NCBI RefSeq assembly: GCF_019464535.1
Contig: NZ_CP080507.1
Location: forward strand, 3,030,001 to 3,062,000
Origin: Horticoccus luteus
GTDB lineage: Bacteria > Verrucomicrobiota > Verrucomicrobiia > Opitutales > Opitutaceae
Direction of reading: 5' to 3'
Length of the DNA: 32,000 nucleotides
A model generated the notes under the pieces. That model had not been told where the DNA came from. It did not search any database and saw only the letters and a program-made list of their open reading frames with translations. The translations under genes and the position numbers were made by a program. The first letter of the stretch is position 1; each line of letters starts with the position of its first letter. Shown here in pieces: positions 2,145 through 26,920 of the stretch.

Positions 2145-3974
2145 CTATTTGCGCGGCGCCTCGGGCTCATCGCGCACTGGCAGCGTCACGGCAAAGCGAC
2201 TGCCTTGCCCAGGCGTGCTCGTCGCCCGCACGCTGCCGCCGTGGCGTTCCGCGATGCGCCGCACGATCGCGAGCCCGATCCCGGTCCCGTCATAGCGATT
2301 GTAACCATGCAACCGCTCGAACGGCGCAAAGATCCGCTCGGCATAACGCTCATCGAAGCCGATGCCGTTGTCCTCGACGATGAGGACGACCTTCCCCGGC
2401 GCGCATTCAGCCCGCACCTTGACCACCGACGGCACGTCCGGCCGCCGAAACTTCAGCGCGTTGCCCACCAAATTGGCCAGCAGCTGATGCAACTGCGTCG
2501 GATCGCCCATCACAACGGGCAACGCCTCCGCCTCGACTCGCCCGCCCGTCTCCTCCATCCGCACGGCGAGCTCCTCCAGCACGGTGCCCAGCGTCGCGTT
2601 CAGGTCCACCCGGGCGCGCTTCGGCGCGAGGGCCGAGGTTCGCGAATACGTGAAAATATCCCGCACCAGCGAACGCAGCCGCTCCACCGATGCCTCGATC
2701 CGCTCCACAAACGTCCGCCCCGCCGGATCCAGTTGTTCACTGTGCTCCGCCCGCAACAACGACGCGAACGAGCTGATCAACCGCAACGGCTCGTTCAAAT
2801 CGTGCGACGCAATACGCGCGAAATCATCCAGGTCCCGATTCGCCTCCGCGAGGGCCTTGGTGCGCTTCTGCACCCGCGCTTCCAGTGATTCGTTGAGCAA
2901 CCGCAGCTCCAGTTCGCGCGCCCTCAGCTTGTCGGCGCTCTGCCGCAACACGGTCGCCACCACATCCGTCTCCCGCATGCCCGTTTTCGCCGCGCCGAGC
3001 GGCTCCGTCCGCACCAGCGCCCCGGCGTCCGCCACCAGCGACTGCACGCCGCGCCACACGCCCCGGCTCACCCACCACGCCATCGCGACCGTGAGCGCGC
3101 CGAGCACCGCCGCAGCCCCCAGCACCCAAACCACCCACTCATGCGCCGACGCATATAAATCCGCCCGCGGCGCTCCGATGATCACGCTCCACGGCGTGTC
3201 GCGCGAACGACTAAACGCCGAGATCGTGGGGATTCCGTCGAGCGTCACCGTCTCGATCGAACCCTCTTCGCTCGCGTGCATGGCCGCCATCATGTCGGCG
3301 GACGCCTGGCGTCCGATATACTGCTCGCCACCGCGATTTCGCGCCACCACCCGCGCGTCGCCATCGACGATTGAGACCGTCCAACCGGGCCCGATATTCG
3401 GCCCCAAAAGTAATTTCGACAGCACCGCCGGTCGCATCGCGAGATTCAAGGTGTAACGCAATTCTCCCTCCCGCTGGATCGGAATCGCGACAAACACCAG
3501 CCACTCGCCCGTCGCCGGACCCTGGATCAAATTCGAAACATACGTCTGGCCCGCGAGCGCCGCCTGCCGAAAGGAATCGCGAAAATGGATCATCGGCAAC
3601 GGCGCCCCAAACGGCAGCGCCGTGTTGATGATCTGCTGCCGATCCGCGCCGATCAGCACCACCCACTCGTCGCGGCTCGTCGTCACCTGACGCGCCTGCT
3701 CGTAGAATCCGCGAAAGTCCCCACTCTCCAACTTCGCGGAAGTCGCCAGTCCCTTGAGCAACGCTTCCTTTTCCCGCAGCACGCCATCGACCACGAGTCG
3801 CCGCATCCGCGTGAGCAGCTCCGTCTGTCGCGTGAGGGCATCCCGTTCGCGGCGATAGGATTCTGCCAGCAGCGTCGCCGCTAGCAGCAACACCGGCAGA
3901 ATGACCGCGACCACCAGCAGTGCCAACCGGCCGCGTAACGAATGGAAAAGGAACTGGGAAAGTCGGTGAGCCAT
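2145..3974 (-). CDS. Sensor histidine kinase with periplasmic Cache-like domain (609 aa from ATG 3974)
   Basis: Two TM segments (LALLVVAVILPVLLLAATLL and WVVWVLGAAAVLGALTVAMAWWV) bracket about 270 aa containing a Cache-like TYVSNLIQGPATGEWLVFVAIPI motif. A coiled coil follows, then the HisKA H-box IASHDLNEPLR and the HATPase_c motifs DNGIGFD and GTGIGLAIVRRIAERHGG. I chose the start at MAHRLSQ (3974) rather than the track start at 4034, which would overlap the upstream gene. Confidence 0.9.
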   Translation of the reverse strand: MAHRLSQFLFHSLRGRLALLVVAVILPVLLLAATLLAESYRRERDALTRQTELLTRMRRLVVDGVLREKEALLKGLATSAKLESGDFRGFYEQARQVTTSRDEWVVLIGADRQQIINTALPFGAPLPMIHFRDSFRQAALAGQTYVSNLIQGPATGEWLVFVAIPIQREGELRYTLNLAMRPAVLSKLLLGPNIGPGWTVSIVDGDARVVARNRGGEQYIGRQASADMMAAMHASEEGSIETVTLDGIPTISAFSRSRDTPWSVIIGAPRADLYASAHEWVVWVLGAAAVLGALTVAMAWWVSRGVWRGVQSLVADAGALVRTEPLGAAKTGMRETDVVATVLRQSADKLRARELELRLLNESLEARVQKRTKALAEANRDLDDFARIASHDLNEPLRLISSFASLLRAEHSEQLDPAGRTFVERIEASVERLRSLVRDIFTYSRTSALAPKRARVDLNATLGTVLEELAVRMEETGGRVEAEALPVVMGDPTQLHQLLANLVGNALKFRRPDVPSVVKVRAECAPGKVVLIVEDNGIGFDERYAERIFAPFERLHGYNRYDGTGIGLAIVRRIAERHGGSVRATSTPGQGSRFAVTLPVRDEPEAPRK

Positions 3975-4003
3975 ACGGCACCGTCCGAAGGACGCGCGCG
4001 CGT

Positions 4004-5044
4004 TCAGGCTCCCGAAGGTTCTTCCTTTTGCCAAGCTTTTGCCGCGGGCGCACCTTCACCCAACGCGTCCCGCACCTGCGCCACGAGCGCATAGGAATGC
4101 AGCCGCGCCGCCTGTTCGTAAATCGCCGCCGTCACCATCAACTCATCCACTTTCGTCCGCGCAAGAAACGCCGCCAATCCCCGCCGCACCGTCGCCGGCG
4201 CGCCCACCACCGCCTCGCTGAACGCATGCTCTACGCCGGCCTTTTCCACCGCCGACCAATGCCCGTCCATGCTCGCCACCGGCGGCGGCAAAGGCCCTGG
4301 CTCCCCGCGCCGCAGTTTCACGAAACTCAATTTCTGCGACGTGAACAACCGCCCCGCCTCCTCGTCGGTATCCGCCGCGATTACCCCGATGCACGCCATC
4401 GCATACGGCGTCGGCCATTCCCGCGACGGCCGGTAGTCGCGCCGGTAGATCGCCAGCGCGTCCATCAACGCATCCGGCGCGAAGTGCGATGCAAACGCGA
4501 ACGGCCGCCCGAGCGCCGCCGCCAGTTGCGCACTGAACAGACTCGAGCCCAGCAGCCATACCGGCACGTCCTCGCCCGCCCCCGGCACCGCGCGCACGGC
4601 CTGCCCCGGCGACGCCGGTTGGAAATAATGCATGAGCTCCACGACATCGTCCGGAAATGTATCCGCCCCGCCCCGCGTGCGTCGCAGCGCCCGCGCCGTC
4701 ACCTGATCCGTGCCCGGCGCGCGCCCCAATCCCAGATCGATCCGGCCGGGAAACAACGCCGCGAGAGTGCCGAACTGCTCCGCGATTACGAGCGGGGCGT
4801 GGTTCGGCAGCATGATGCCGCCCGACCCCACGCGAATCCGCTTCGTGCCCTCCGCCACGTGCCCGATCGCCACCGCCGTCGCGGCACTCGCGATCCCTGG
4901 CATGTTGTGATGCTCCGCCATCCAAAACCGCCGGTAGCCCAGTCGCTCCGCGTGTTGCGCGAGCTCCCGGCTGCGGCGCAACGCATCTCCTGCCGTCCCA
5001 CCCTGCGGTATCGGCGATAAATCCAGCACAGAAAAAGGCACCAT
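4004..5044 (-). CDS. LLM-class (luciferase-like) flavin-dependent oxidoreductase, 346 aa
   Basis: [12 protein letters not shown]...[24 protein letters not shown]...[39 protein letters not shown] is the characteristic N-terminal signature of luciferase-family group-1 oxidoreductases. Confidence 0.9.
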
Positions 5045-5150: not shown

Positions 5151-7280
5151 TCACTTTTTCGCGCCCGGTGCGTCAGCGGACTTTTTCGGCAACCCCACGT
5201 AGTTCAGAAACGCGTCCATCGAACGCGGCCGCCCGAGGAATTTCTCCACCGATTCGCCCACGTCGCGTGTATCGCCCACGCCATACACTTCCTTCCGCAG
5301 GCGCAGGCCTGTGTCCACATCGAGAAACCCATCCGCCGCCTGCTTGAACACGCTCGCCATGTCGATCGCCATCACCCGCGACCACAGGTAACCATAGTAA
5401 CCCGCATCATAGCCCACGAGGTGACCGAAATACGTCACAAACGACGTCCCTTCCGGCTGCGCCACAAACACCCGCGCCAGCACGTCGTTGCTCAATCCCA
5501 CCACGTCCACCTTCGCCGCCTGCGCCGGCGTCAACAGATGCAGCCGCAGATCGATCAGCCCAAACGAAAGCTGGCGGCGGTTGTAATACCCTTCCGTCGC
5601 CACGCGCGCCTTCGTCAGCGCCGCGATCGTCTCCGCAGGGATCTTCTTGCTCGGGTCGCGGTAATCGGCGGCGAACGTGTCGAGCACCGCCTTGTCCCAC
5701 GGCCAGTTCTCCAGCATCTGCGACGGCCCTTCCACAAAATCCTGCGGCACGCCAAACGAGGTCTGCGCCTGGAACCGCGCGCGACTGAGAATGCCATGCA
5801 TCACGTGTCCGAACTCGTGAAACAACGTGACCACTTCGTCGTGCGCCAGCAGCGAAGGCTTGTCGCCCGCCGGCGGCGGGAAGTTGCACACCAGCACTTC
5901 CACCGGCAGTTCATACTTCCCCTCCGCCCCCACCCGGCCCGGCGTCTGCGGGAAACACGCGAAGTGGTTGAATTTTCCCTCGCGCGGAAACATGTCCAAA
6001 TAAAATGACCCCATCGCCACGCCGGTCTTCGCGTCGCTCACCACGAAAAACTGCACGCCCGGCGTCCACAGATACGGCGCCTCCACCCGGGTAAACGTCA
6101 GCCCGAAGATCCGTTGATAAATGCGAAACATCCCCTCGAGCGTCGCCTGATACGGGAAGTAAACGCGCAACTGCTCCGCATCGACCGCGTAGCGCTCCTT
6201 CTTGAGCTGATTGAGATAATAGCGGATGTCCCACGCCTCCAGTTTCGCCGCCGGATCCTTCGTCTCGCTCACTTTCAACTGGCGCAACGTCTCCAGCTCC
6301 GCCGACCACTTCGGTTGCAGCGCCGTCACCAGATCCTCCTCGAACTTCAACGCCGCCGCTCCCGTCTTCGCCATGCGCGTCTCCGTGCGATAGTCCGCCC
6401 ATGACCCGTAGCCGAGCCGGTGCGCGATCTCCGCGCGCAACTGCACCAGCTTCGTCAACACCGGCGTGTTCGACTCCTTCGCCAGCGTCTCGCGCGCCAC
6501 CAGCGCCCGCCGCCGTGTTTCCGGATTCGTCGCATTTTCTTCCAACGCCAGCGCGTGAAAGGTGATGTTCAACATCGCGCGGAATTTTCCGTCCGCCTGC
6601 TTCACGCCCGGGCTCGCCAGAAAACTTTCCGGCACGCCCGCCAGCTCCTCCGCCGTGAAATCGATCGGCGCCCGCGCCTGGTTGATGTTCGTCGAAAACT
6701 GCTCCTCCGTCGCCGACAGTTCCTTGCGCAAACCTTCGACCGCTTTCTGCTCCTCCGCCGGCAACGCCAGACCCGCGCGCCGGTAATCGCGCAACGTGAA
6801 ATCCACCAGCCGCTGCTCCTGCGCATCGAGCTTCGTCCCGCGATCGGCGAACGCTTTCAACACCCGGTAAACATCCGCGCGATAATCCAGCGCGATCGCC
6901 CATTGCTGCAACGTCACCGACGCCGCCCGCGCCGCGTCGCGCGTCGCCACGTCCACGCTTGTCTCCGAAACGAAATCGTTCTGCCCCGCATACGCCGCCA
7001 CGTCGCCCGTGATCGCATCATACGCCGCGAACGTGCTCGCGAACGTCGCCGCGTCCGCCGGTTGCTGTGCCAGTTTCGCCAGCGCCGCATCGGCGCGCGC
7101 GATGGCCGCCTTCGTCATGCTTTGCACCTCCGCCGCGTTTCGCGCCCACGTCGGCAGCACGAGCGCCATGCCATCGCGCGTCGCCTGCGCCTGCAGGTCC
7201 TCCAGTTTCGTCGCCGCGGTCATCACCGCGCCGGCACCAATGAACCCAATTCCAAAGCCAATCCAACGGAGTATTTTCAT
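5151..7280 (-). CDS. M3 family metallopeptidase (oligopeptidase A / peptidyl-dipeptidase Dcp-like), exported, 709 aa
   Basis: HEFGHVMH zinc motif with a downstream FVEGPSQMLENW glutamate region. Length and layout fit M3A. The start was moved to MKILRWIGFGIGFIGAGAVMTAA (ATG at 7280), a signal/anchor sequence; the track start at 7487 would overlap the neighbouring gene. Confidence 0.9.
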   Translation of the reverse strand: MKILRWIGFGIGFIGAGAVMTAATKLEDLQAQATRDGMALVLPTWARNAAEVQSMTKAAIARADAALAKLAQQPADAATFASTFAAYDAITGDVAAYAGQNDFVSETSVDVATRDAARAASVTLQQWAIALDYRADVYRVLKAFADRGTKLDAQEQRLVDFTLRDYRRAGLALPAEEQKAVEGLRKELSATEEQFSTNINQARAPIDFTAEELAGVPESFLASPGVKQADGKFRAMLNITFHALALEENATNPETRRRALVARETLAKESNTPVLTKLVQLRAEIAHRLGYGSWADYRTETRMAKTGAAALKFEEDLVTALQPKWSAELETLRQLKVSETKDPAAKLEAWDIRYYLNQLKKERYAVDAEQLRVYFPYQATLEGMFRIYQRIFGLTFTRVEAPYLWTPGVQFFVVSDAKTGVAMGSFYLDMFPREGKFNHFACFPQTPGRVGAEGKYELPVEVLVCNFPPPAGDKPSLLAHDEVVTLFHEFGHVMHGILSRARFQAQTSFGVPQDFVEGPSQMLENWPWDKAVLDTFAADYRDPSKKIPAETIAALTKARVATEGYYNRRQLSFGLIDLRLHLLTPAQAAKVDVVGLSNDVLARVFVAQPEGTSFVTYFGHLVGYDAGYYGYLWSRVMAIDMASVFKQAADGFLDVDTGLRLRKEVYGVGDTRDVGESVEKFLGRPRSMDAFLNYVGLPKKSADAPGAKK

Positions 7281-17230: not shown

Positions 17231-17427
17231 CACAGAGACGTGGGGTTGAAAATTTCCCCTGTCTTCTCCGTCACACCGATCGCAACAACGGAAGGCAGGG
17301 CACTTTGCGGCTTGGAAACTAGCGCCCGCACCGCCACATTCAACTGGCAATCCGGCGCACCCCTCGCCGTCCGCCCTCATTTTTGCCCGCGCCCGATTCC
17401 GCGCCCGCGTCCCGCCGCCCTCTTTCC

Positions 17428-18885
17428 ATGGCTCTTCAACCGCTGCTCTCCTCCGACGCCCTCGCCGCCAACATGGCGGAGCTCAAACCGCCCTTCCGCC
17501 CCAGCGAGGCCCTCGTCGAGGCTCACCGCTGCCTCTTCTGCTTCGACGCCCCGTGCATCATGGCCTGCCCCACCGGCATCGACGTGCCGGCGTTCATCAA
17601 AAAAATCGCCGCCGGCCGCCCCGCCGACGCCGCGCGCACCATCCTCTCCGCCAACATTCTCGGCGCCTCCTGCGCCCGCGTCTGCCCCACCGAAGTCCTC
17701 TGTGAAGGCGCCTGCGTCCTCGACGACCGCGATGAACAACCCATCCAAATCGGACGCCTCCAGCGCTACGTGACCGACTTCGTCACCGAACGAAACATCT
17801 CCGTCCTCTCCGCCCCCGCGCAAAAATCCGGCCACGCCATCGCCGTCATCGGCGCCGGTCCCGCCGGCCTCGGCTGCGCCGCCGAACTTGCCCGCCTCGG
17901 CCATCGCGTGACCATTTTCGAGCAGAAACAACTGCCCGGCGGCCTCAACACCTACGGCATCGCCTATTACAAAATGACGCCCGACGTCAGCCTCGCCGAA
18001 GTCGACCTCGTGCGATCGCTCGGCGTCGAAATCCGCTGCGGTGTCACCGTCGGGCGCGATATCACCGTCGCCCAACTCGAAAAAGAGTTCGCCGCACTCT
18101 TCCTCGGCGTCGGCCTCGGCGCCGCGACGCGCCTCCGCATTCCCGGCGAAGACCTGCCCGAAGTCCTCGATGCCCTAGACTACATCGCGCAGATTCACAC
18201 GCAACGGCTCGACAAAATCCCCACCGGCCGTCGCGTCGCCGTCATCGGCGCCGGCAACACCGCCATCGACGCCGTCACCCAGTCGAAGCGCCTCGGCGCC
18301 GACCGCTCCTTCATCGTTTACCGCCGCGGCGAACCCGAAATGTCCGCCTACGATTTCGAATACGCACACGCCAAACACGACGGCGCGCATTTTCTTTTTC
18401 ACGCCGCACCCCTCGAAATCCTTGCGACTGATGGCCACGTCTCCGGCCTCCGTCTCGTCCGCACGCGCCTCGTCGGCGACCGCGCCGAGGCGATTCCCGG
18501 CACCGAATGGATCGAGCCCTGCGACCTCGTGCTCAAAGCCGTCGGCCAGCAAAAGCAAGCCGCCCTCCTGCGCTCGCTCTTCCCCACGCTCGCCCTCGAC
18601 GACCGCGGCGTCGTGCAACGCGATCCCCTCACCGGCGCGACCAATCTCCCCCACGTTTTCACCGGCGGCGATTGCGCCAACGGTGGACGCGAGGTCGTCA
18701 ACGCCGTTGGCGAAGGCAAGAAGGCCGCTCTCGGCATCCACGCTTTCCTTACGCGGGCCCTGGCGTCGCTTCCCGTGCAACCCTCCCGCCTCGGCGCAAA
18801 AGCCGGCGCCAGCGGCTCCGGTCTGGTTCATCCCATCCGCGCGCACGAACTGGAAGCCGCGCTCCCGTCCCCCGCCCGCGGCTGA
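17428..18885 (+). CDS. preT: NAD-dependent dihydropyrimidine dehydrogenase subunit PreT (GltD-like FAD/NAD oxidoreductase), 485 aa
   Basis: The N-terminal Fe-S cysteine clusters CLFCFDAPCIMACPTGIDV and CARVCPTEVLCEGAC, two dinucleotide folds (VIGAGPAGLGCAAEL and VIGAGNTAIDA), and position immediately upstream of preA. Start at MALQPLL (17428). Confidence 0.88.
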   Translation: MALQPLLSSDALAANMAELKPPFRPSEALVEAHRCLFCFDAPCIMACPTGIDVPAFIKKIAAGRPADAARTILSANILGASCARVCPTEVLCEGACVLDDRDEQPIQIGRLQRYVTDFVTERNISVLSAPAQKSGHAIAVIGAGPAGLGCAAELARLGHRVTIFEQKQLPGGLNTYGIAYYKMTPDVSLAEVDLVRSLGVEIRCGVTVGRDITVAQLEKEFAALFLGVGLGAATRLRIPGEDLPEVLDALDYIAQIHTQRLDKIPTGRRVAVIGAGNTAIDAVTQSKRLGADRSFIVYRRGEPEMSAYDFEYAHAKHDGAHFLFHAAPLEILATDGHVSGLRLVRTRLVGDRAEAIPGTEWIEPCDLVLKAVGQQKQAALLRSLFPTLALDDRGVVQRDPLTGATNLPHVFTGGDCANGGREVVNAVGEGKKAALGIHAFLTRALASLPVQPSRLGAKAGASGSGLVHPIRAHELEAALPSPARG

Positions 18886-18992: not shown

Positions 18993-20309
18993 ATGGCCGA
19001 TCTCTCCACCAACCTCGCCGGCATCAAGTCTCCCAATCCCTTCTGGGTCGCGAGCGGTCCGCCCGCCAACACCGCTTACCAGGCCCACCGCGCCTTCGAA
19101 GCCGGCTGGGGCGGCGTGGTCTGGAAAACCATCGGCGATCCGATCGTCAACGTCGCCTCGCGCTACTCCGCGTTGAACTACGGCCGCGACCGCATGATCG
19201 GCCTTAACAACATCGAGCTCATCAGCGACCGCTCGCCTGAGACGAATTTCCGCGAAATCGCCGAGGTCAAAAAACGCTGGCCGCACCACGCCGTCATCGC
19301 GTCCCTCATGGTCGACACGCGCGAACGCTGGCACGAATTCGTCCGCCGCTCCACCGACGCCGGCGCCGACGGCATCGAGCTGAATTACGGCTGCCCGCAC
19401 GGCATGTGCGAACGCGGCATGGGTTCCGCCGTCGGCCAGCAACCCGCCGTCGCCGAAAAAATCACGAGCTGGGTCATGGAGGTCGCGACGATCCCCGTCA
19501 TCGTCAAACTCACGCCCAACATCACCGACATCACCGCCGCCGCCCGCGCCGCCAAACGCGCCGGCGCCAACGCGATCTCGCTCATCAACACGATCAACTC
19601 GATCACCAACGTGAACCTCGACACGTTCGTGCCCGAACCCACCGTCGCCGGCCTCAGTTCGCACGCCGGTTATTGCGGCCCCGCCGTGAAGCCCATCGCG
19701 CTCAATATGGTTCAGTCTTGCGCCGCCGACCCCGCCGTCGGCCTCCCGATCTCCGGCATCGGCGGCATCGCCAACTGGCGCGACGCCGCCGAGTTCCTCG
19801 CCCTCGGCTCGACCAGCCTGCAAGTCTGCACCGCGATCATGCACTACGGTTTCCGCATCGTCGAAGACATGAACGAAGGCCTCAGCGCCTACCTCGACAG
19901 CAAAGGCATGAAGTCGATCAACGAACTCATCGGCCGCGCCGTTCCCACCGTGCAAAAATGGGAAACCCTCGACCTCAACTGGCAGCGCGTCGCGCGCATC
20001 GACTACGAGAAATGTATCGGCTGCAACCTGTGCTACATCGCCTGCGAAGACGGCGCGCACCAATGCATCGATCTCCTCTCGCCCGACGAACTCAACATCG
20101 GCCTCGGCCCTGGACGCGTCCCGCACAAACCCGTCCCCAAAGTCCGCGAAGAAGACTGCGTCGGCTGCAACCTCTGCAGCCTCGTGTGCCCGGTGGACGA
20201 CTGCATCACGATGACGGAAATCCCCACCGGCCGCCCGCCGCTAAGCTGGAGTGACTATCAAACCCGCCTCGCCGCCGGCGAAATATCCCCCCTCCCGCCG
20301 CATCCGTGA
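18993..20309 (+). CDS. preA: NAD-dependent dihydropyrimidine dehydrogenase subunit PreA (DHOD-like TIM barrel plus 2x[4Fe-4S]), 438 aa
   Basis: NPFWVASGPP, ELNYGCPHGM and VKLTPNITDI match the DHPD/DHOD fold. C-terminal ferredoxin motifs CIGCNLCYIACEDG and CVGCNLCSLVCPVDDC. Start at MADLSTN (18993), in the frame of track ORF 18507-20309. Confidence 0.92.
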   Translation: MADLSTNLAGIKSPNPFWVASGPPANTAYQAHRAFEAGWGGVVWKTIGDPIVNVASRYSALNYGRDRMIGLNNIELISDRSPETNFREIAEVKKRWPHHAVIASLMVDTRERWHEFVRRSTDAGADGIELNYGCPHGMCERGMGSAVGQQPAVAEKITSWVMEVATIPVIVKLTPNITDITAAARAAKRAGANAISLINTINSITNVNLDTFVPEPTVAGLSSHAGYCGPAVKPIALNMVQSCAADPAVGLPISGIGGIANWRDAAEFLALGSTSLQVCTAIMHYGFRIVEDMNEGLSAYLDSKGMKSINELIGRAVPTVQKWETLDLNWQRVARIDYEKCIGCNLCYIACEDGAHQCIDLLSPDELNIGLGPGRVPHKPVPKVREEDCVGCNLCSLVCPVDDCITMTEIPTGRPPLSWSDYQTRLAAGEISPLPPHP

Positions 20310-20319
20310 TCACGTGGTG

Positions 20320-20359
20320 AAGCTCCAAAATCCAACATCCAAGCTCCATAGAAGCGCCA
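20320..20359. repeat. Left terminal inverted repeat of the cassette
   Basis: Contains AAGCTCCA at 20320 and 20341 and the variant AAGCGCCA at 20352, mirrored by TGGAGCTT at 20873, 20852 and 20841. Confidence 0.8.
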
Positions 20360-20421
20360 AGCTTCAACTGGAAACGAAGCGCCCACCCAACTACGCTGAG
20401 GCGAACGGCACGGATTGGTCC

Positions 20422-20796
20422 GTGGGCGAGGATTCACCTGCGACCGGAAGACATCCCTTTGATTTGGAAGAACGGACGGCTTGTTTCGGCGCAGCCATTA
20501 TTCGCTTCCTCAAAAAAGTTCCTCACGGACCCAACAACAACCGGTTGATCGACCAACTCGTAGGCTGCGGCACGAGCATAGGCGCCAACTATTGTGAGGC
20601 CAACGAAGGCGTTTCCAAAAAAGACTTCCGCAACATCATTGGCCGCTGCGTGAAAGAAGCGAAGGAAACGAAGTTTTTTCTTCGTATGATTGCCACCTCT
20701 GAACCCGCGCTCGCCGATCAAGCGCGCACGCTCTACCGCGAGGCGCAAGAACTGCACCTCATCTTCGCCAGCATCTATCGCAATACCAAGCCATGA
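20422..20796 (+). CDS. Four-helix-bundle protein (23S rRNA intervening-sequence protein / Avd-like family), about 124 aa
   Basis: FDLEERTACFGAAIIRFLKKVP...NRLIDQLVGCGTSIGANYCEANEGVSKKDFRNIIGRCVKEAKETKFFLRMI is the family signature (TSIGANY.EA...SKKDF...KE.KET). There is no ATG upstream in this frame. GTG at 20422 gives the family-typical length; alternative GTGs lie at 20314 and 20317, inside the left arm. Confidence 0.8.
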   Translation: MGEDSPATGRHPFDLEERTACFGAAIIRFLKKVPHGPNNNRLIDQLVGCGTSIGANYCEANEGVSKKDFRNIIGRCVKEAKETKFFLRMIATSEPALADQARTLYREAQELHLIFASIYRNTKP

Positions 20797-20840
20797 GCTT
20801 CATGGGCCGAATACTACGGCATCTTCCGAGCCTCGCAGCG

Positions 20841-20880
20841 TGGAGCTTCTCTGGAGCTTGGATGTTGGTGCCTGGAGCTT
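20841..20880. repeat. Right terminal inverted repeat of the cassette
   Basis: TGGAGCTTCTCTGGAGCTTGGATGTTGGTGCCTGGAGCTT is the reverse complement of the left arm at 34/40 positions. It ends 19 nt before the mmsA ATG. Confidence 0.8.
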
Positions 20881-20899
20881 TCCTCCCTCACAACCTTTC

Positions 20900-22399
20900 A
20901 TGACCACCCCGCTCACCCCCTGCCCGCACCTCATCGGCGGCGAATGGTCGACGCCCTCCGGCGCCACCACGCCCGTTTATAATCCCTCCACCGGCGAAGT
21001 CATCGCCGAGTGCCCCGTCGGCGGCGCCGCCGAAATCAACGCCGCCGTCGCCGCCGCCGCTGCAGCATTTCCCGCGTGGCGCGAAACCCCCGCCGTCGAT
21101 CGCGCGCGCATCTTTTTCCGCTTCCGCCACCTCATCGAGCAAAACCACGACCGCCTCTGCCTCAGCGTTTCCCGTGAGCACGGCAAAACACTTTCCGAAG
21201 CGCGCGGCGATGTTCACCGCGGGATGGAAAACGTCGAATACGCCTGCGGCATTCCCTCGCTCCTCTTCGGCGACACCCTCGAAAACCTCGCGCGCAACGT
21301 CGACTGCGAGACCATCGTCCAGCCCCTCGGCGTTTGCGCCGGCATCACCCCCTTCAACTTCCCCGCCATGGTGCCGCTCTGGATGTATCCGCTCGCCATC
21401 GCGTGCGGCAATACGTTCGTCCTCAAGCCCAGCGAAAAAGTCCCGCTCACCGTCATCCTTCTCGCGCAGTTGCTCGAACAAGCCGGCCTGCCCAAAGGCG
21501 TGTTGAACATCGTCCACGGCGGGCGCCCATGCGTCGACGCCCTGCTCACGCATCCGCAGGTGAAAGCCATTTCCTTCGTCGGCTCCACCCCGATCGCGAA
21601 ATACATTTACGAAACCGGCACGCGCCACGGCAAACGCGTCCAGGCCAACGGCGGCGCGAAAAACTACATCGTCGTCATGCCCGATGCCGACATCGCGAAG
21701 ACCGTCGAAGCGCTCTCCACCGCCGCCTTCGGTTGCGCCGGCGAGCGTTGCATGGCCGGCTCGACCGCCCTCCCCGTCGGCGCCGCCGCCGAGCGGCTCC
21801 TGCCCGATCTCATCGCCGCCGCCAACGCGATCAAAGTCGGCCGCACCGATCGGCCCGCCCCCGCCGCCCAACCCGACATGGGCCCCGTCATCACCGCCGC
21901 CCACCGCGACCGCGTCCTCAGCCTCGTCGCCGCCAGCGAATCCGAAGGCGCCAAAATCATCGCCGACGGCCGCCGCGCCAAAATCGCCGACGCCCCCGGC
22001 GGGTTCTATCTCGGCGCCACGGTGGTCGACGGCGTGCACCCTGACATGACCCTCGCCCGCGAGGAAGTCTTCGGTCCCGTCCTCAATGTCATGCGCATGG
22101 ACGACCTCGACGCCGCCATCGCGCAAGCCAACGCCTCCGCCTTCGGCAACGGCGCCGCCATCTTCACGAACAGCGGCCGCGCCGCCCGCGAGTTCAAGCA
22201 TCGCGTGAAAGCTGGCATGGTCGGCATCAACGTGGGCGTCCCGGCGACGATGGCCATGTTCCCCTTCACCGGCTGGGACGACTCCTTCTTCGGCGATCTC
22301 CACATTCAAGGGAAGGAAGCCGTGCAATTCTACACGCAGCAAAAAGTCGTCACGAGTCGCTGGTTCGGCGGCGACGTCGGCGACGTGTGGAAAAAATAG
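20900..22399 (+). CDS. mmsA: CoA-acylating methylmalonate/malonate-semialdehyde dehydrogenase, 499 aa
   Basis: Aldehyde dehydrogenase fold with FNFPAMVPLWMYPLAIACGNTFVLKPSE, the catalytic-Cys motif GCAGERCMAGS and the C-terminal GWDDSFFGDLHIQGKEAVQFYT typical of MmsA. Start at MTTPLTPCPHLIGGEW (20900). Confidence 0.92.
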   Translation: MTTPLTPCPHLIGGEWSTPSGATTPVYNPSTGEVIAECPVGGAAEINAAVAAAAAAFPAWRETPAVDRARIFFRFRHLIEQNHDRLCLSVSREHGKTLSEARGDVHRGMENVEYACGIPSLLFGDTLENLARNVDCETIVQPLGVCAGITPFNFPAMVPLWMYPLAIACGNTFVLKPSEKVPLTVILLAQLLEQAGLPKGVLNIVHGGRPCVDALLTHPQVKAISFVGSTPIAKYIYETGTRHGKRVQANGGAKNYIVVMPDADIAKTVEALSTAAFGCAGERCMAGSTALPVGAAAERLLPDLIAAANAIKVGRTDRPAPAAQPDMGPVITAAHRDRVLSLVAASESEGAKIIADGRRAKIADAPGGFYLGATVVDGVHPDMTLAREEVFGPVLNVMRMDDLDAAIAQANASAFGNGAAIFTNSGRAAREFKHRVKAGMVGINVGVPATMAMFPFTGWDDSFFGDLHIQGKEAVQFYTQQKVVTSRWFGGDVGDVWKK

Positions 22400-22527
22400 A
22401 AACTCCAACCTCCACCCTCCAAGCTCCAGAGAAACCTCAACCCTGAGACCTCCAAACCCATCCATGCCAACTTCGAGAATTGAACCCTGGAGCATCTCCG
22501 GAACCGGGATGTTGGACCTTCGAGCTT
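22400..22527. repeat. ORF-less miniature copy (128 bp) of the 20320-20880 element
   Basis: The left arm 22400-22439 matches 20320-20359 at 31/40 positions. The right arm 22488-22527 matches 20841-20880 at 31/40. Orientation is the same, with only 48 bp between the arms. The copy starts 1 nt after the mmsA TAG and ends 7 nt before the hydA ATG. Its own two arms are only about 26/40 complementary, so it is decayed. Confidence 0.7.
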
Positions 22528-22534
22528 TTTCCTC

Positions 22535-23917
22535 ATGAGCCTGCTGATTAAGAACGGCGAAATCATCACCGCCGACTCCCGCTACGTGGCCGATATCTAC
22601 TGCGAGGGCGAAACGATCACGCACATCGACCGCCACCTTTCCGCTCCCGCCGGCACCGAGGTGATCGACGCGCAGGGTAAATACGTCTTCCCCGGCTTCA
22701 TCGACCCGCACGTCCACATCCATCTGCCCTTCATGGGCACCCTCGCCAAAGATACGTATGAATCCGGCTCGCGCGCGGCCTTGGTCGGCGGCACCACCAC
22801 GCTCATCGAAATGTGCTGTCCCGCACGCCAGGACGACGCTCTGCAATCCTTCGAACAATGGATGAACAACGCCGTCGGTAAATCCGCCTGCGATTTCTCG
22901 TTCCACATGGGCGTCACGAAATTTGACGACGCCACCGCCGCGCAGCTTCGCGAAATCGTGCGCCGCGGCATCTCGTCGTTCAAAATCTTCCTCGCCTACA
23001 AAGGCGCCTTCGGCATCGACGACACCGAACTCTACCGCGCGCTCAAGCTCGCCAGAGAACTCGGCGTCGTTGTCACCGCGCACTGCGAAAACGAGACCCT
23101 CGTCGCCGAACGCTGCAAGGAACTGCTCGCCGCCGGCAAGACCGACCCCGGCCAGCATCACGAAAGCCGCCCGCCCGCCGTCGAGGCCGAGGGCGTGCAC
23201 CATTTGATGACGTTCGCCGAACTCACCGGCGCCGCCGTTTACATTGTCCACCTCTCCTGCCGCGAAGCGCTCGACGAGGCTATCGCCGCCCGCCAGCGCG
23301 GCGTGCGCGTCGGCATCGAAACGCTCATCCAATATCTCACGCTCGACAAATCCTACGCCGAACGCCCGGGCTTCGAAGGCGCGAAATACGTCATGTCGCC
23401 GCCCTTGCGCGACGTGCGCAACCAGGAGGTCCTCTGGCACGGCCTCCGCGACGGCCTCATCAACACCGTCGCCACCGACCACGCGCCCTTCGATTTCGCC
23501 GGCCAAAAACCGCTCGGCCGCGACGACTTCACCAAGATCCCCAACGGCATTCCATCGCTCGAGGAGCGCATCAACCTGCTCTACACGTACGGCGTGAAAC
23601 GCGGACGGATCGATCTGCACACCTTCGTCAACGTCGCCAGCACCGCCGTCGCGAAACAGTTCGACCTCTTTCCCCGCAAAGGCGCCATCCAGCCCGGCGC
23701 CGACGCCGACCTCGTCGTCTTCGACCCGAATTATCGCGGCAATATTTCCGTCGCGACGCAGCACATGGCCGTCGATTACAGCGCCTTCGAGGGCTGGCCG
23801 ATCGAAGGTCGCGCCAGCGTCGTCACCGTCCGTGGCCAGGTCGCCGCGCGCGACGGACAATTCACCGGCACCCTCGGCCGCGGGCGCTTCCTGCAACGGA
23901 AGCCCAGCCATTTTTAA
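22535..23917 (+). CDS. hydA: Dihydropyrimidinase (D-hydantoinase), 460 aa
   Basis: Cyclic amidohydrolase metal ligands: GFIDPHVHIHLPF, SFKIFLAYKG (carboxylated Lys), TAHCEN, YIVHLS and ATDHAPF. Confidence 0.93.
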   Translation: MSLLIKNGEIITADSRYVADIYCEGETITHIDRHLSAPAGTEVIDAQGKYVFPGFIDPHVHIHLPFMGTLAKDTYESGSRAALVGGTTTLIEMCCPARQDDALQSFEQWMNNAVGKSACDFSFHMGVTKFDDATAAQLREIVRRGISSFKIFLAYKGAFGIDDTELYRALKLARELGVVVTAHCENETLVAERCKELLAAGKTDPGQHHESRPPAVEAEGVHHLMTFAELTGAAVYIVHLSCREALDEAIAARQRGVRVGIETLIQYLTLDKSYAERPGFEGAKYVMSPPLRDVRNQEVLWHGLRDGLINTVATDHAPFDFAGQKPLGRDDFTKIPNGIPSLEERINLLYTYGVKRGRIDLHTFVNVASTAVAKQFDLFPRKGAIQPGADADLVVFDPNYRGNISVATQHMAVDYSAFEGWPIEGRASVVTVRGQVAARDGQFTGTLGRGRFLQRKPSHF

Positions 23918-24014
23918 CCCTTTCCCGAATCACATGCTTGGGTGCAAGCCACGCCGCCTCTGCCTTCGCTCCGTGCTTATGCAGTCCGTCCCGTGATTTC
24001 CGGACGCCGCTTTT

Positions 24015-25514
24015 ATGTCCACTGAATCCAGAACCAGCGGCACGCTTACCGATCCGTCCGCCGGATCATCCGTCTTAACCACCTCGCCGCTCTACAATGC
24101 CGATCTCGCGCCCGTGCCCGCCGAGCGTCGCACATGGACGCGCTGGCACATCGCCGCCCTCTGGGTCGGCATGGCCGTTTGCATCCCCACCTACACCATC
24201 GCCTCGGGACTCATCGCGAGCGGCCTGAATTGGTGGCAGGCGCTCCTCTGCGTGCTGCTCGGCAATCTCATCGTGCTGATTCCGATGACGCTCAACGCCC
24301 ACCCCGGCACCGCCTACGGCATCCCGTTTCCGGTGTTGTTGCGCGCGAGTTTCGGCACCCTCGGCGCCAACCTTCCCGCCCTCATGCGCGCGATCGTGGC
24401 CTGCGGCTGGTTTGGCATTCAAACCTGGGTCGGCGGCGCGGCGATTTATAGCACCGCCGCGATTATTTTCGGCTTCGATCCCGCGACCAAAATCGCCCTT
24501 CCGGTCCTCGGCCTCTCGCCCGGCGAGTTCTCCTGCTTCCTGCTGTTTTGGGCCATCAACGTTTACTTCATTGTCCGCGGCATGGAGTCCATCAAATGGC
24601 TGGAAACGTTCAGCGCGCCGTTTCTCCTCCTTGTTGGCGGCGCGTTGATGCTTTGGGCCTATCACGCCGCGCACGGTTTCGGCCCGATCTTTGCCCAACC
24701 CGACACGCTCTTCGCCGCCGGAAAATTCTGGCCCATCTTCGGCGGCGGCCTCACCGCGATGGTGGGCTTCTGGGCGACGCTCTCGCTCAACATTCCCGAC
24801 TTCTCCCGCTTCGCCCGCTCGCAACGCGACCAAATCGTCGGCCAGGCGCTCGGCCTGCCGACGACGATGACATTCTACTCGTTCATCGGCATCGTGGTCA
24901 CGAGCGCCACGCTCGTCATCTTTGGCAACGCGATCTGGGATCCCGTGGTCGTCATTGCGAAGTTCGGCAGCAAATCTCTCTCCGCCCTCGCGCTCCTCAC
25001 GCTCGCCGTCGCCACGCTCTCGACCAACATCGCGGCCAACGTCGTCTCCTCCGCCAACGATTTCTCCAACCTCGCTCCGCGGCGCATCAGTTTCAAACTC
25101 GGCGGCCTCCTCACCGCCATCATCGGCCTGGTCATGATGCCGTGGAAACTCATGGCGGATCCGACCGGCTACATCTTCACCTGGCTGATCGGCTATAGCG
25201 CGCTCCTCGGCCCCATCGCCGGCATCATGATCGCCGACTACTTCGTCGTCCGCCGCAAGCAGCTCGACGTCGCCGCGCTCTACGATCCGCACGGCGCCTA
25301 TCGCTTCACCCACGGCTTCAGCCTCGTCGCGCTGCTCGCGTTTCTCCTCGCCGTGCTGCCGTCACTGCCGGGCTTTCTCGTCGCCGTCGGCGCGGTCGCG
25401 CCAACGAGCGTCGCGCCGATATTCCTCAACCTCTATAACATCGCCTGGTTCGTCGGCTTCGCGCTCGCGTTCGCCGTTTACCTCGTCCTCCGCCCCCTCG
25501 CGCGCCGCGCCTGA
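24015..25514 (+). CDS. NCS1 family nucleobase:cation symporter (uracil/hydantoin/allantoin-type permease), 499 aa
   Basis: Twelve-TM-like hydrophobic profile. N-terminal NADLAPVPAERRTW and downstream NIPDFSRFARS motifs are typical of NCS1 transporters. Pathway context fits. Confidence 0.88.
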   Translation: MSTESRTSGTLTDPSAGSSVLTTSPLYNADLAPVPAERRTWTRWHIAALWVGMAVCIPTYTIASGLIASGLNWWQALLCVLLGNLIVLIPMTLNAHPGTAYGIPFPVLLRASFGTLGANLPALMRAIVACGWFGIQTWVGGAAIYSTAAIIFGFDPATKIALPVLGLSPGEFSCFLLFWAINVYFIVRGMESIKWLETFSAPFLLLVGGALMLWAYHAAHGFGPIFAQPDTLFAAGKFWPIFGGGLTAMVGFWATLSLNIPDFSRFARSQRDQIVGQALGLPTTMTFYSFIGIVVTSATLVIFGNAIWDPVVVIAKFGSKSLSALALLTLAVATLSTNIAANVVSSANDFSNLAPRRISFKLGGLLTAIIGLVMMPWKLMADPTGYIFTWLIGYSALLGPIAGIMIADYFVVRRKQLDVAALYDPHGAYRFTHGFSLVALLAFLLAVLPSLPGFLVAVGAVAPTSVAPIFLNLYNIAWFVGFALAFAVYLVLRPLARRA

Positions 25515-25576: not shown

Positions 25577-26920
25577 ATGAAAAACATCCCGCTGCCGCCT
25601 TGCGCCCACACCCCTGCGCCTTACACCGGCCCTTCCGCCGGCCAGGTCCTCGCGCAACGCCGCGAATTCCTCAACCCCGGCATCATCACTTACTACAAGC
25701 ACCCCATCATGATCGTGCAGGGGAAAATGCAGTGGCTCTGGGACGACGCCGGCAAACGCTACCTCGATGCTCTCGGCGGCATCGTCACCGTCAGCGTCGG
25801 CCACTGCCACCCCCATGTCGTCGCCGCCGCGCACCAGCAGAACGAACTGCTGCAACACGCCACCACGCTTTACCTGCATCCGAACATCGGCGAGTTCGCC
25901 GAGAAGCTCGCGTCCACGCTCCCCGGCGATCTCAAGGTCTGCTACTTCGTCAACTCCGGCTCCGAAGCCAACGACCTCGCCCTCCTCATGGCGCGGCTCT
26001 ACACCGGCAACTACGACGTGATCGCCCTGCGCAACGCCTACCACGGCGGCAACGCCGCGGGCATGGGTCTGACCGCAAACTCCAATTGGAAATTCAATGT
26101 CCCGCATAGCTTCGGCGTGCATCACGCCCAGACGCCCTATTCCTATCGCGGCGTCTTCGGCTACGACGATCCCGACGCCGGCCGCAAATACGCCGACGAC
26201 GTCAAACAGGTGATCGACTACGCCACGTCCGGCAAAATCGCCGCATTCATCGCCGAATCGATGCAAGGCGTCGGCGGCTTCGTCGAGTTTCCCGCCGGCT
26301 ATCTCCAGCACGCCTACGGCCACGCCCGCGCGGCGGGCGGCGTGTGCATCGCCGACGAAGTGCAAACCGGTTTCGGCCGCACTGGCACGAATTTCTGGGG
26401 CTTCCAAAATCACGGCGTCGTGCCCGACATCGTCACCATGGCAAAAGGCATCGGCAATGGCGCGCCCCTCGCCGCCGTCGTCACCACCCCGAAAATCGCC
26501 GCGATGCTCACGCAAAAGACGCATTTCAACACCTTTGGCGGCAACCCCGTCGTCTGCGCCATTGGCACCGCCGTCCTCGACGTCATCGCCCGTGAAAAGA
26601 CGCAGCAAAACTGCCTCGAACTCGGCCGCCACCTCCTCGCGGGACTGAACAAGCTCAAAGAGAAACACGCGCTCATTGGCGACGTGCGCGGCCAAGGCCT
26701 GATGGTCGGCCTCGAGTTCGTGAAAGATCGACAGACCAAAGAGCCCGCCAAAGAGGCGTGCCAGCAAGTCGTCGAGAACTGCCGCGAACTCGGCCTCCTC
26801 GTTGGCAAAGGCGGCTTGTGGGGCCAGACCATTCGCATGGCTCCGCCGATGAACATCACGAAAGCCGACGCCGACTTCATCCTCGCCGTGCTCGACGAAG
26901 CCATCGGCGCCGCCGCATAA
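25577..26920 (+). CDS. Class-III PLP aminotransferase, AGXT2-like (beta-alanine / 3-aminoisobutyrate : pyruvate type), 447 aa
   Basis: [25 protein letters not shown] and [12 protein letters not shown] (PLP lysine), with overall similarity to alanine-glyoxylate aminotransferase 2. Substrate is inferred from operon context. Confidence 0.85.

Follow-up and report, generated by a model that had tools for sequence, protein, structure and literature searches.

An old, degenerate palindrome between mmsA and hydA of Horticoccus luteus belongs to a large repeat family placed at stop-to-start junctions

The operon for reductive pyrimidine catabolism in Horticoccus luteus (Opitutaceae, Verrucomicrobiota) raises the question of what a short palindrome without an open reading frame (ORF) represents between two of its genes, mmsA and hydA, when a gene-bearing cassette with similar arms lies one junction, or 1.5 kb, upstream. 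The H. luteus DNA searched was a stretch of 32 kb (hereafter the window), in which the operon runs on the + strand. The small element (the miniature) lies at positions 22400-22527, and the cassette occupies 20320-20880, between a preA-like gene and mmsA. An initial annotation of the window had read the two as an autonomous element accompanied by a derivative resembling a miniature transposable element with inverted repeats (MITE), or else as an element with its cargo and a copy that had lost it. We find that the miniature is a genuine, old and degenerate copy of an imperfectly palindromic repeat of ~135 bp, which forms a large family. This family sits at the junctions between the stop codon of one gene and the start codon of the next, and this placement is its strongest regularity.

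The miniature is made up, on the + strand, of a C/A-rich left arm (22400-22439; AAACTCCAACCTCCACCCTCCAAGCTCCAGAGAAACCTCA), a loop of 48 nt (22440-22487), and a G/T-rich and more eroded right arm (22488-22527; TGGAGCATCTCCGGAACCGGGATGTTGGACCTTCGAGCTT). The left arm contains the exact core of the family, TCCAAGCTCCAGAGAA, at 22418-22433. The two arm matches to the cassette that had first drawn attention to the miniature were reproduced exactly, at 31 of 40 positions between the left arm and 20320-20359 and at 31 of 40 between the right arm and 20841-20880, as was the 48-nt distance between the arms. Moving the register by 1-3 nt left only 7-13 matches. Either miniature arm gave a local alignment score of 38 against its cassette arm. 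Chance scores were 15-16 ± 2.5 with a maximum of 31 in 2000 dinucleotide shuffles, and reached at most 26 among 918 real window tiles, which places the similarity far above chance. At no more than one mismatch, the 16-mer TCCAAGCTCCAGAGAA occurs three times in the window, where 0.09 occurrences are expected.

A profile hidden Markov model (HMM) built from the arms of 44 elements, all of them from other genomes, matched the window at four places only, namely the arms of the cassette (20317-20367, 44.7 bits; 20882-20833, 43.1 bits) and those of the miniature (22398-22444, 29.5 bits, E = 2e-8; 22529-22478, 15.5 bits, E = 4.7e-4). The decay suspected in the initial annotation is borne out, as the miniature has the lowest arm scores of the whole element set. 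Its arms are complementary to each other at 26 of 40 positions, as had been estimated, vs 34 of 40 in the cassette. The claim of a second, ORF-less copy with the arms of the cassette therefore holds, except for the assertion that both copies lie in the same orientation. This part is undecidable, as a single consensus in inverted copies underlies both arms: the miniature left arm scores 31 against the cassette left arm and 31 against the reverse complement of the cassette right arm, and the right arm scores 31 vs 30 in its two orientations. The similarity does not extend inwards, since the loop, which has no ORF, aligns with the cassette interior at 14-16, vs 16.3 ± 2.1 for shuffles, that is, at chance level. 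Only two ORFs run over the miniature, 22330-22569(-) and the antisense ORF 20888-23911(-), and both are read as spurious. The peptide strings proposed as search handles are present in spurious ORFs over the arms, with ORF 20690+ reading ...LWSLDVGAWSF... and ORF 22330- reading ...LWSLEGGGWSF....

Further copies, on whose existence the proposal of a repeat had hinged, exist in large numbers. A scan for the exact core TCCAAGCTCCAKAGAA in one genome per species returned at least 120 loci, about 85 of which are Verrucomicrobiota loci with a periodic arm. Among the matches listed, the Verrucomicrobiota hosts include Opitutaceae, Chthoniobacterales, Limisphaerales, Methylacidimicrobium and many unclassified metagenome-assembled genomes (MAGs), and all the Verrucomicrobiota loci listed have the core in the same periodic C/A-rich context, GAAGCTCCAAgcnCCAAnaTCCAAGCTCCAGAGAAnnnCCAAnnnCCAA. 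The arms consist of CCAAGCT-type heptads around the TCCAAGCTCCAGAGAA core, in which the CCAA blocks are conserved and the positions between them are free. Pairing of arm-HMM hits defined 76 elements in the sampled loci. The lengths are bimodal, as had been predicted: 58 elements measure 111-149 nt and have no ORF, and seven measure 542-650 nt, each with a gene for a four-helix-bundle protein. Another 11, at 164-392 nt, are without any remnant of this gene. The gene is thus present in 7/7 long elements (71-86% amino acid identity) and in 0/69 others, and the gene-bearing form accounts for about one copy in ten. Short elements have stems of ~50 bp, a variable G+C-rich loop and folding energies that are often between -60 and -90 kcal/mol; for most of the 76 paired elements the range is -50 to -90 kcal/mol.

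The 32 kb of H. luteus contain two copies, and other genomes yielded as many as 8 arms from the small number of loci sampled. Arms are more alike within genomes (76.8%) than between them (72.4%, p = 1.5e-5), and such genome-shared variants imply some duplicative or homogenising process within genomes. The two arms of one element are 77.9% alike, vs 76.8% for arms of different elements in the same genome. No Rfam family matched anywhere in the window at gathering score, and within 20200-22700 only chance-level hits (E ≥ 1.2) were obtained at E ≤ 10. No rRNA motif was found in any locus. Nor did the literature searched contain a description of the arm sequence or of such a repeat in Verrucomicrobiota, or place TIGR02436, TIGR04256, PF05635 or PF13366 in such a setting. 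The family is undescribed in this sense, being absent from Rfam and from that literature.

The position of the elements relative to genes is where the family is most regular, on counts that are approximate. A long ORF supported by its G+C content at third codon positions (GC3) ends within -12 to +8 nt of the stem base in 43/76 elements, and elements often begin T(G/A)A-AGCTCC, with the stop codon touching the stem. A stop at one stem base together with a gene start beyond the other is seen in 32/76, the start lying mostly 1-16 nt after the element; for 20 of these 32 intercistronic elements it lies 1-10 nt past the element end. The last GGAG of the 3′ arm is then ~6-12 nt before the ATG, for example CTTGGAGCTTTCCCCCATG. 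Among 60 elements with gene context, the flanking genes are co-directional in 37, convergent in 17 and divergent in only 6, so divergent (promoter) spacers are under-represented. The H. luteus miniature has exactly this geometry. The TAG stop codon of mmsA (22397-22399, + strand) directly adjoins the first base of the left arm, the arms run from 22400 to 22527, and the ATG of hydA (22535-22537, + strand) begins 7 nt past the right arm, the whole spacer being 22400-22534.

The age of the miniature can be read from an orthologous copy. In an Oleiharenicola MAG (L029), the same operon carries both elements at the same two junctions, with the cassette at 3556-4118 after preA and a miniature of 136 nt between the mmsA stop (5609) and the hydA start (5748). 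The flanks align base for base with those of H. luteus, as GTGTGGAAAAA(A/G)TAG, the element, and TTTCC(T/C)CATGAGCCT. At 4-fold sites the two genomes are 66% identical in mmsA and 57% in hydA, where composition alone gives 62% and 59%. The left arms of the two miniatures are 81% identical, the right arms 71% and the loops 51% (11/2000 shuffles equally good, p ~0.006). As neutral sites are saturated and the miniature is still recognisable, it predates the Horticoccus/Oleiharenicola split, which confirms the earlier impression of age. The presence of both elements in the same two Oleiharenicola spacers likewise identifies them as ancient residents and not the outcome of recent local transposition. 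A third genome (L124) also has the orthologous cassette before mmsA. In the hydA-permease spacer of L029, a third exact-core arm with a poor partner was observed at 7233-7248; H. luteus has no such arm there.

The explanation that we favour, with slightly less than even confidence, is that the miniature is a transcribed intercistronic palindrome whose stem closes the gap between stop and start, and which acts or is tolerated in the operon mRNA. The element would be transcribed within a preT-preA-mmsA-hydA-permease-aminotransferase mRNA, and its arms would fold into a long stem with the 5′ base at the upstream stop codon and the 3′ base a few nucleotides before the next start. A stem spanning the junction would thus bring stop and start together. 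In well-formed copies the terminal GGAG, 6-12 nt ahead of the ATG, would also be buried in this stem by pairing with the CTCC just after the stop codon, so that translation of the downstream gene could depend on the ribosome finishing the upstream gene. The ~50 bp of double-stranded RNA could, in addition, be an RNase III site that separates the cistrons. By such means the insertion may be tolerated, or used, inside the operon. Because the H. luteus stem has 26/40 pairs and its terminal GGAG has mutated to CGAG, the activity of this particular copy is probably weak.

Several results count against this explanation. The sense strand of the miniature folds at -33.1 kcal/mol, with z = -1.8 and 12/200 shuffles equally good, and over the same span the Oleiharenicola miniature folds at -52.4 kcal/mol vs -30.1 for the eroded H. 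luteus copy. The antisense strand gives a more stable fold, at -48.8 kcal/mol vs -30.1 for the sense strand, an uninformative result because all window spacers show it, for compositional reasons. The test for compensatory changes that the initial annotation had proposed was essentially negative. Gaps in the loops limited RNAalifold to 9 invariant pairs when it was run on 45 miniatures aligned with MAFFT, and the majority structure of single-sequence folds was used in its place. In the resulting 53-pair structure, 80.6% of cells are paired across the 45 elements, vs 79.4% with partners shuffled among sequences, and hence there is no evidence of RNA-level maintenance of individual pairs. The pairing derives from the conserved CCAA/TTGG blocks, and mismatches at the free positions occur at roughly the rate expected by chance. 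On the strand of the adjoining gene, G·U pairs show no excess over A·C (146 vs 163, p = 0.36), and conservation favours neither arm with respect to the direction of transcription. Solo arms occur without a partner, which a pure hairpin function leaves unexplained. A consensus check found no promoter-like or terminator-like site in the miniature. The conservation of arms between orthologues could stem from homogenisation towards the consensus instead of selection on the miniature. Finally, a Shine-Dalgarno role of GGAG in H. luteus is putative, and the gene calls in the loci are crude (ORF length and GC3), so that the context counts given above are approximate.

Next in standing, and in our judgement unlikely, is the transposon interpretation with which the locus was first presented. 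Under this proposal the cassette is autonomous and the miniature is an internal-deletion derivative that was moved in trans by the cassette protein or a host enzyme. The miniature does resemble a MITE in having terminal inverted repeats, a small size and no coding capacity. Short and long forms share the same arms in a bimodal distribution of ~8 short to 1 long, the genome-specific arm variants imply copying within genomes, and the different occupants of the same spacer among relatives imply turnover. Against it, the check for target-site duplications recommended in the initial annotation came out at chance, the best flanking direct repeat averaging 2.85 nt in 75 elements vs 2.71 ± 0.12 for shuffled flank pairs; that of the window miniature is 2 nt. 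The cargo is a four-helix-bundle protein without a match to any transposase, recombinase or nuclease family, no transposase-encoding form with the same ends was found, and both elements have been kept at orthologous positions across genera. Derivation by internal deletion finds no more support. A tblastn search (E ≤ 0.1) detected no remnant of the cargo gene in the 69 shorter elements, and the only hit up to E = 1 was a chance match of 15 residues (E = 0.72). Loss of the cargo by deletion, the other origin that had been suggested, has accordingly left no trace, and the miniature loop is unrelated to the cassette interior.

A third explanation, which we regard as improbable, moves the function to the DNA level. 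The arms would be arrays of protein-binding sites, formed by the CCAAGCT heptads on double-stranded or extruded DNA, with the hairpin as a by-product. Candidates for the binder would be a nucleoid protein or the four-helix-bundle protein in its pentameric form. The arms keep to a strict period of seven, in which conserved CCAA blocks alternate with free triplets, and this fits well with such arrays, as do the symmetry of the strands with no bias of G·U over A·C, the occurrence of solo arms, and the finding that similarity between the arms of a single element does not exceed that between arms of different elements in the same genome (77.9 vs 76.8%). The closest solved structure of the protein, PDB 2RLD, was deposited with five chains, and a Xanthomonas homologue forms a pentameric ring (PMC4990558). 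The binding itself is putative, however, and elements are depleted at divergent promoters; the exact stop-start placement fits a constraint at the transcript level better. In most genomes, as judged from the sampled loci, the hairpins also greatly outnumber the four-helix-bundle genes of the subtype in question.

We give a similarly small chance to the miniature being an inert relic, the dead remnant of an old insertion that fills the spacer and has no present role. The arm scores of 29.5 and 15.5 bits, the lowest of the set, the pairing of only 26/40 arm positions, a sense fold not significantly better than shuffles (z -1.8) and the mutation of GGAG to CGAG would all be expected of such a remnant. 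Its arms are nevertheless 71-81% identical to those of the orthologue despite 4-fold sites at the compositional floor, and no relative examined has an empty mmsA-hydA spacer. A terminator or promoter role was rejected, as no consensus site lies inside the miniature, and an origin from phage was set aside; the 17 IMG/VR contigs with the core appear to carry host-type or solo arms.

On the viral-class contigs L133, L135, L139 (IMGVR_UViG_3300020119_000128), L134 and L144, we observed a C/A-rich arm without a detectable G/T-rich partner, with up to three such solo arms in 7.6 kb. Downstream of the arm, L134 has a short hairpin rich in G+C and then a gene start of the form GGAGG-ATG. Well-formed elements were also observed on MAG contigs labelled as Acidobacteriota (L052, L073, L091 (DATNEA), L062, L110 and L039), with the labels Candidatus Angelobacter, Acidoferrum, Sulfotelmatobacter and Acidiferrales. 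These could be mis-binned Verrucomicrobiota contigs or could reflect real spread beyond the phylum.

The cassette is the better preserved of the two H. luteus elements. Its 44-nt left arm (20320-20363, + strand) is 84% complementary to the right arm at 20837-20880 (inverted repeat I1), after which the ATG of mmsA follows at 20900. For the cassette as a whole, the minimum-energy structure has a value of -215.8 kcal/mol (z = -4.1) and pairs the two arms with each other. The loop carries the four-helix-bundle gene (PF05635/TIGR02436; 20317-20796, + strand), whose domain begins near 20440. The product, P0121, is a 160-aa four helix bundle protein [Horticoccus luteus] in NCBI, and the NCBI model begins at a GTG at 20317, within the left arm. 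It matches PF05635, the "23S rRNA intervening sequence protein" (Pfam E = 1e-9), and TIGR02436 (E = 6.6e-16), as well as the structure 2RLD (E = 1.8e-10), which was deposited as uncharacterized, and upwards of 7,500 relatives are found at E < 1e-20. Searches of Pfam, TIGRFAM and PDB returned no transposase, recombinase or nuclease family for this protein, and there was no PADLOC hit. The protein is 70-83% identical to its orthologues, whereas 4-fold sites are 39-59% identical, which indicates that the gene is under purifying selection. Membership of the family in the HEPN superfamily was considered and then dropped, the HEPN paper making no mention of S23, IVS or Avd.

Of the seven gene-bearing cassettes, five have an open frame that begins with ATG or GTG in the first bases of the arm (MKLQAPTSKLQRSSK...) and continues via a variable linker of ~40 codons. 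H. luteus and L029 have a WS(V/L)GED motif in common. The cassette arm may be translated as an N-terminal extension of the four-helix-bundle protein. A third and weaker arm (23 bits, left-arm strand) lies between the four-helix-bundle gene and the right arm of the L124 cassette, at 2752-2799, and suggests nesting or arm duplication.

The remaining genes of the operon in the window, all on the + strand, are a preT-like gene (17383-18885), the preA-like gene that ends at 20309, mmsA (an aldehyde dehydrogenase; 20900-22399; PF00171 Aldedh, E = 1e-141), hydA (a dihydropyrimidinase; 22535-23917; the protein is 100% identical to Horticoccus luteus dihydropyrimidinase P0001), an NCS1 permease (24015-25514) and a class-III aminotransferase (25577-26920). 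The antisense ORF 20888-23911(-) of 1007 aa covers mmsA, the miniature and hydA, with a GC3 of 0.65 vs 0.82-0.84 in real genes. It is an artefact of high G+C that could mislead length-based gene callers. The hydA-permease spacer (23918-24014) has a weak fold of -22.6 kcal/mol, via GAATCAC...GTGATTT, and is similar to a hairpin of the CGCGAATCACGCGAAT type that L124 has at this junction (5892-5965). To judge from this resemblance, the spacer may hold another decayed repeat.

The junctions of this operon are occupied differently in related genomes. We compared the mmsA-hydA junction in seven relatives with readable DNA, and the spacer was empty in none of them (0/7). L029 has an element of the same repeat family. 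Hairpins of other types occupy the junction in L124 (CACAGAG), L128 (CACGAAA) and L127 (CGCGAAT, 216 nt). In L122 and L126 the occupant is another four-helix-bundle gene, bracketed by inverted repeats of its own, and L123 has a Trypsin_2 gene. Other junctions of the operon hold more hairpins, arm-flanked PF13366 (PD-(D/E)XK) genes, or a nucleotidyltransferase/HepT pair. In L122 the roles are swapped, with a TTCCAAG-variant miniature before mmsA and a gene-bearing cassette before hydA. At least four arm families and three kinds of cargo are thus found in the same spacers of the same operon, which are therefore persistent landing or retention sites for hairpin-bracketed inserts whose occupants turn over.

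Small PF13366 (PDDEXK_3) genes were observed at operon junctions in L121 (4519-5004) and L123 (2257-2697 and 6471-6779), each between its own inverted arms of short tandem units (AACCACGAAGACACAGAGGCACAAAG...; AACCACGGATTTCACCGATGGGCACGGAT...), with the N-terminus of the protein encoded by the left arm. The ORF-less hairpin in the mmsA-hydA spacer of L124 (4411-4480; GCCACAGAGACTCAGAGGCACAGAG...CTCTGCGCCTCTGTGGC) has arms that resemble those of the L121 and L123 PF13366 genes, and these together make a second arm family with empty and gene-bearing forms. A toxin-antitoxin pair of a nucleotidyltransferase (PF01909) and a HepT-like protein (PF01934) lies between preA and mmsA in L126 (1862-2546), where no obvious inverted arms were seen.

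As the spacers of relatives hold at least four arm families and three kinds of cargo, and the mmsA-hydA spacer is never empty, a broader reading suggests itself, although we consider it rather doubtful. The miniature and the cassette may be two states of a broad class of "hairpin-bracketed guests" of bacterial transcripts. Such guests would have inverted arms of heptads or octads, would be either empty or furnished with a TIGR02436 or PF13366 (PD-(D/E)XK) gene, and would sit at exact stop-to-start operon junctions, where the stem would hide the insertion from translation and RNA processing or make it useful to them. If this were true, the classical intervening sequences (IVS) of 23S rRNA would be just the rRNA-resident subset of the class, and its cargo would be two huge protein families, the four-helix-bundle one and PF13366.

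Among known systems, the IVS of 23S rRNA that carry an S23p or four-helix-bundle ORF, as in Coxiella, Leptospira, Brucella and the Xanthomonas type, come closest to the cassette. In Coxiella, the S23p ORF lies in the loop of a 28-bp inverted-repeat stem that is cut by RNase III, with short tandem heptamers beside the ORF (PMC4990558). The cassette similarly has terminal inverted repeats as a long stem (84% of 44 nt) around a PF05635 ORF in its loop, and the miniature, paired at 26/40, is the same stem minus the ORF. In contrast to IVS, the window elements lie between protein-coding genes and not in helix 25 or 45 of 23S rRNA, their arms are heptad arrays of 44-55 nt instead of a 28-bp stem, and ORF-less copies outnumber ORF-bearing ones.

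The miniatures are closer to intergenic palindromes of the ERIC and Correia type, as imperfect palindromes of ~100-150 bp (58/76) with an intergenic placement typical of transcribed regions (stop at the stem base, 43/76; stop and start, 32/76; divergent, 6/60). ERIC elements are imperfect palindromes of ~127 bp in transcribed intergenic regions, often in operons or just after genes, with no known transposase and a lineage-dependent copy number, and they have been reported to alter mRNA decay (PMC10969869). Unlike ERIC, with which it has no sequence relationship, the present family is found in another host phylum, has heptad-periodic arms and includes a gene-bearing version. Correia elements contain promoter and IHF sites and are flanked by a duplicated TA target; the Verrucomicrobiota repeat differs in showing no target duplication (75 elements), and the miniature in having no promoter-like site. 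The likeness to the Correia or nemis elements (CREE) of Neisseria lies in their length of 100-155 bp, their inverted-repeat ends, and their co-transcription with neighbouring genes as hairpins that are bound or cut by RNase III (PMC2649163; PMC10969869). REP/BIME sequences and their RAYT genes offer a further parallel, as abundant extragenic palindromes that, in a minority of cases, enclose a gene between repeat copies in inverted orientation. REPs near stop codons can affect the translation of the upstream gene. They differ from our elements in being 20-40 bp long, G+C-rich and GTAG/CGTC-tagged (PMC3733652). The gene flanked here encodes a four-helix bundle and not an IS200/IS605-like tyrosine transposase.

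What is new is the combination of ORF-less hairpins and IVS-like gene cassettes with common arms, located at operon junctions and not in rRNA, and the fact that the corresponding spacers of related genomes house several arm and cargo families in parallel. For annotation, the arms yield spurious ORFs (…LWSLELGAWSF…) and over-extended gene starts, and should be masked. The finding adds a large, phylum-wide family to the intergenic palindromes of bacteria (REP, ERIC, Correia, BOX and RUP), for which no Verrucomicrobiota example was previously present in Rfam or in the literature searched. Modules of a stem and a gene at mRNA junctions, occurring both with and without the gene, offer a tractable system for asking about the nature of intervening sequences and the reason for their association with this protein.

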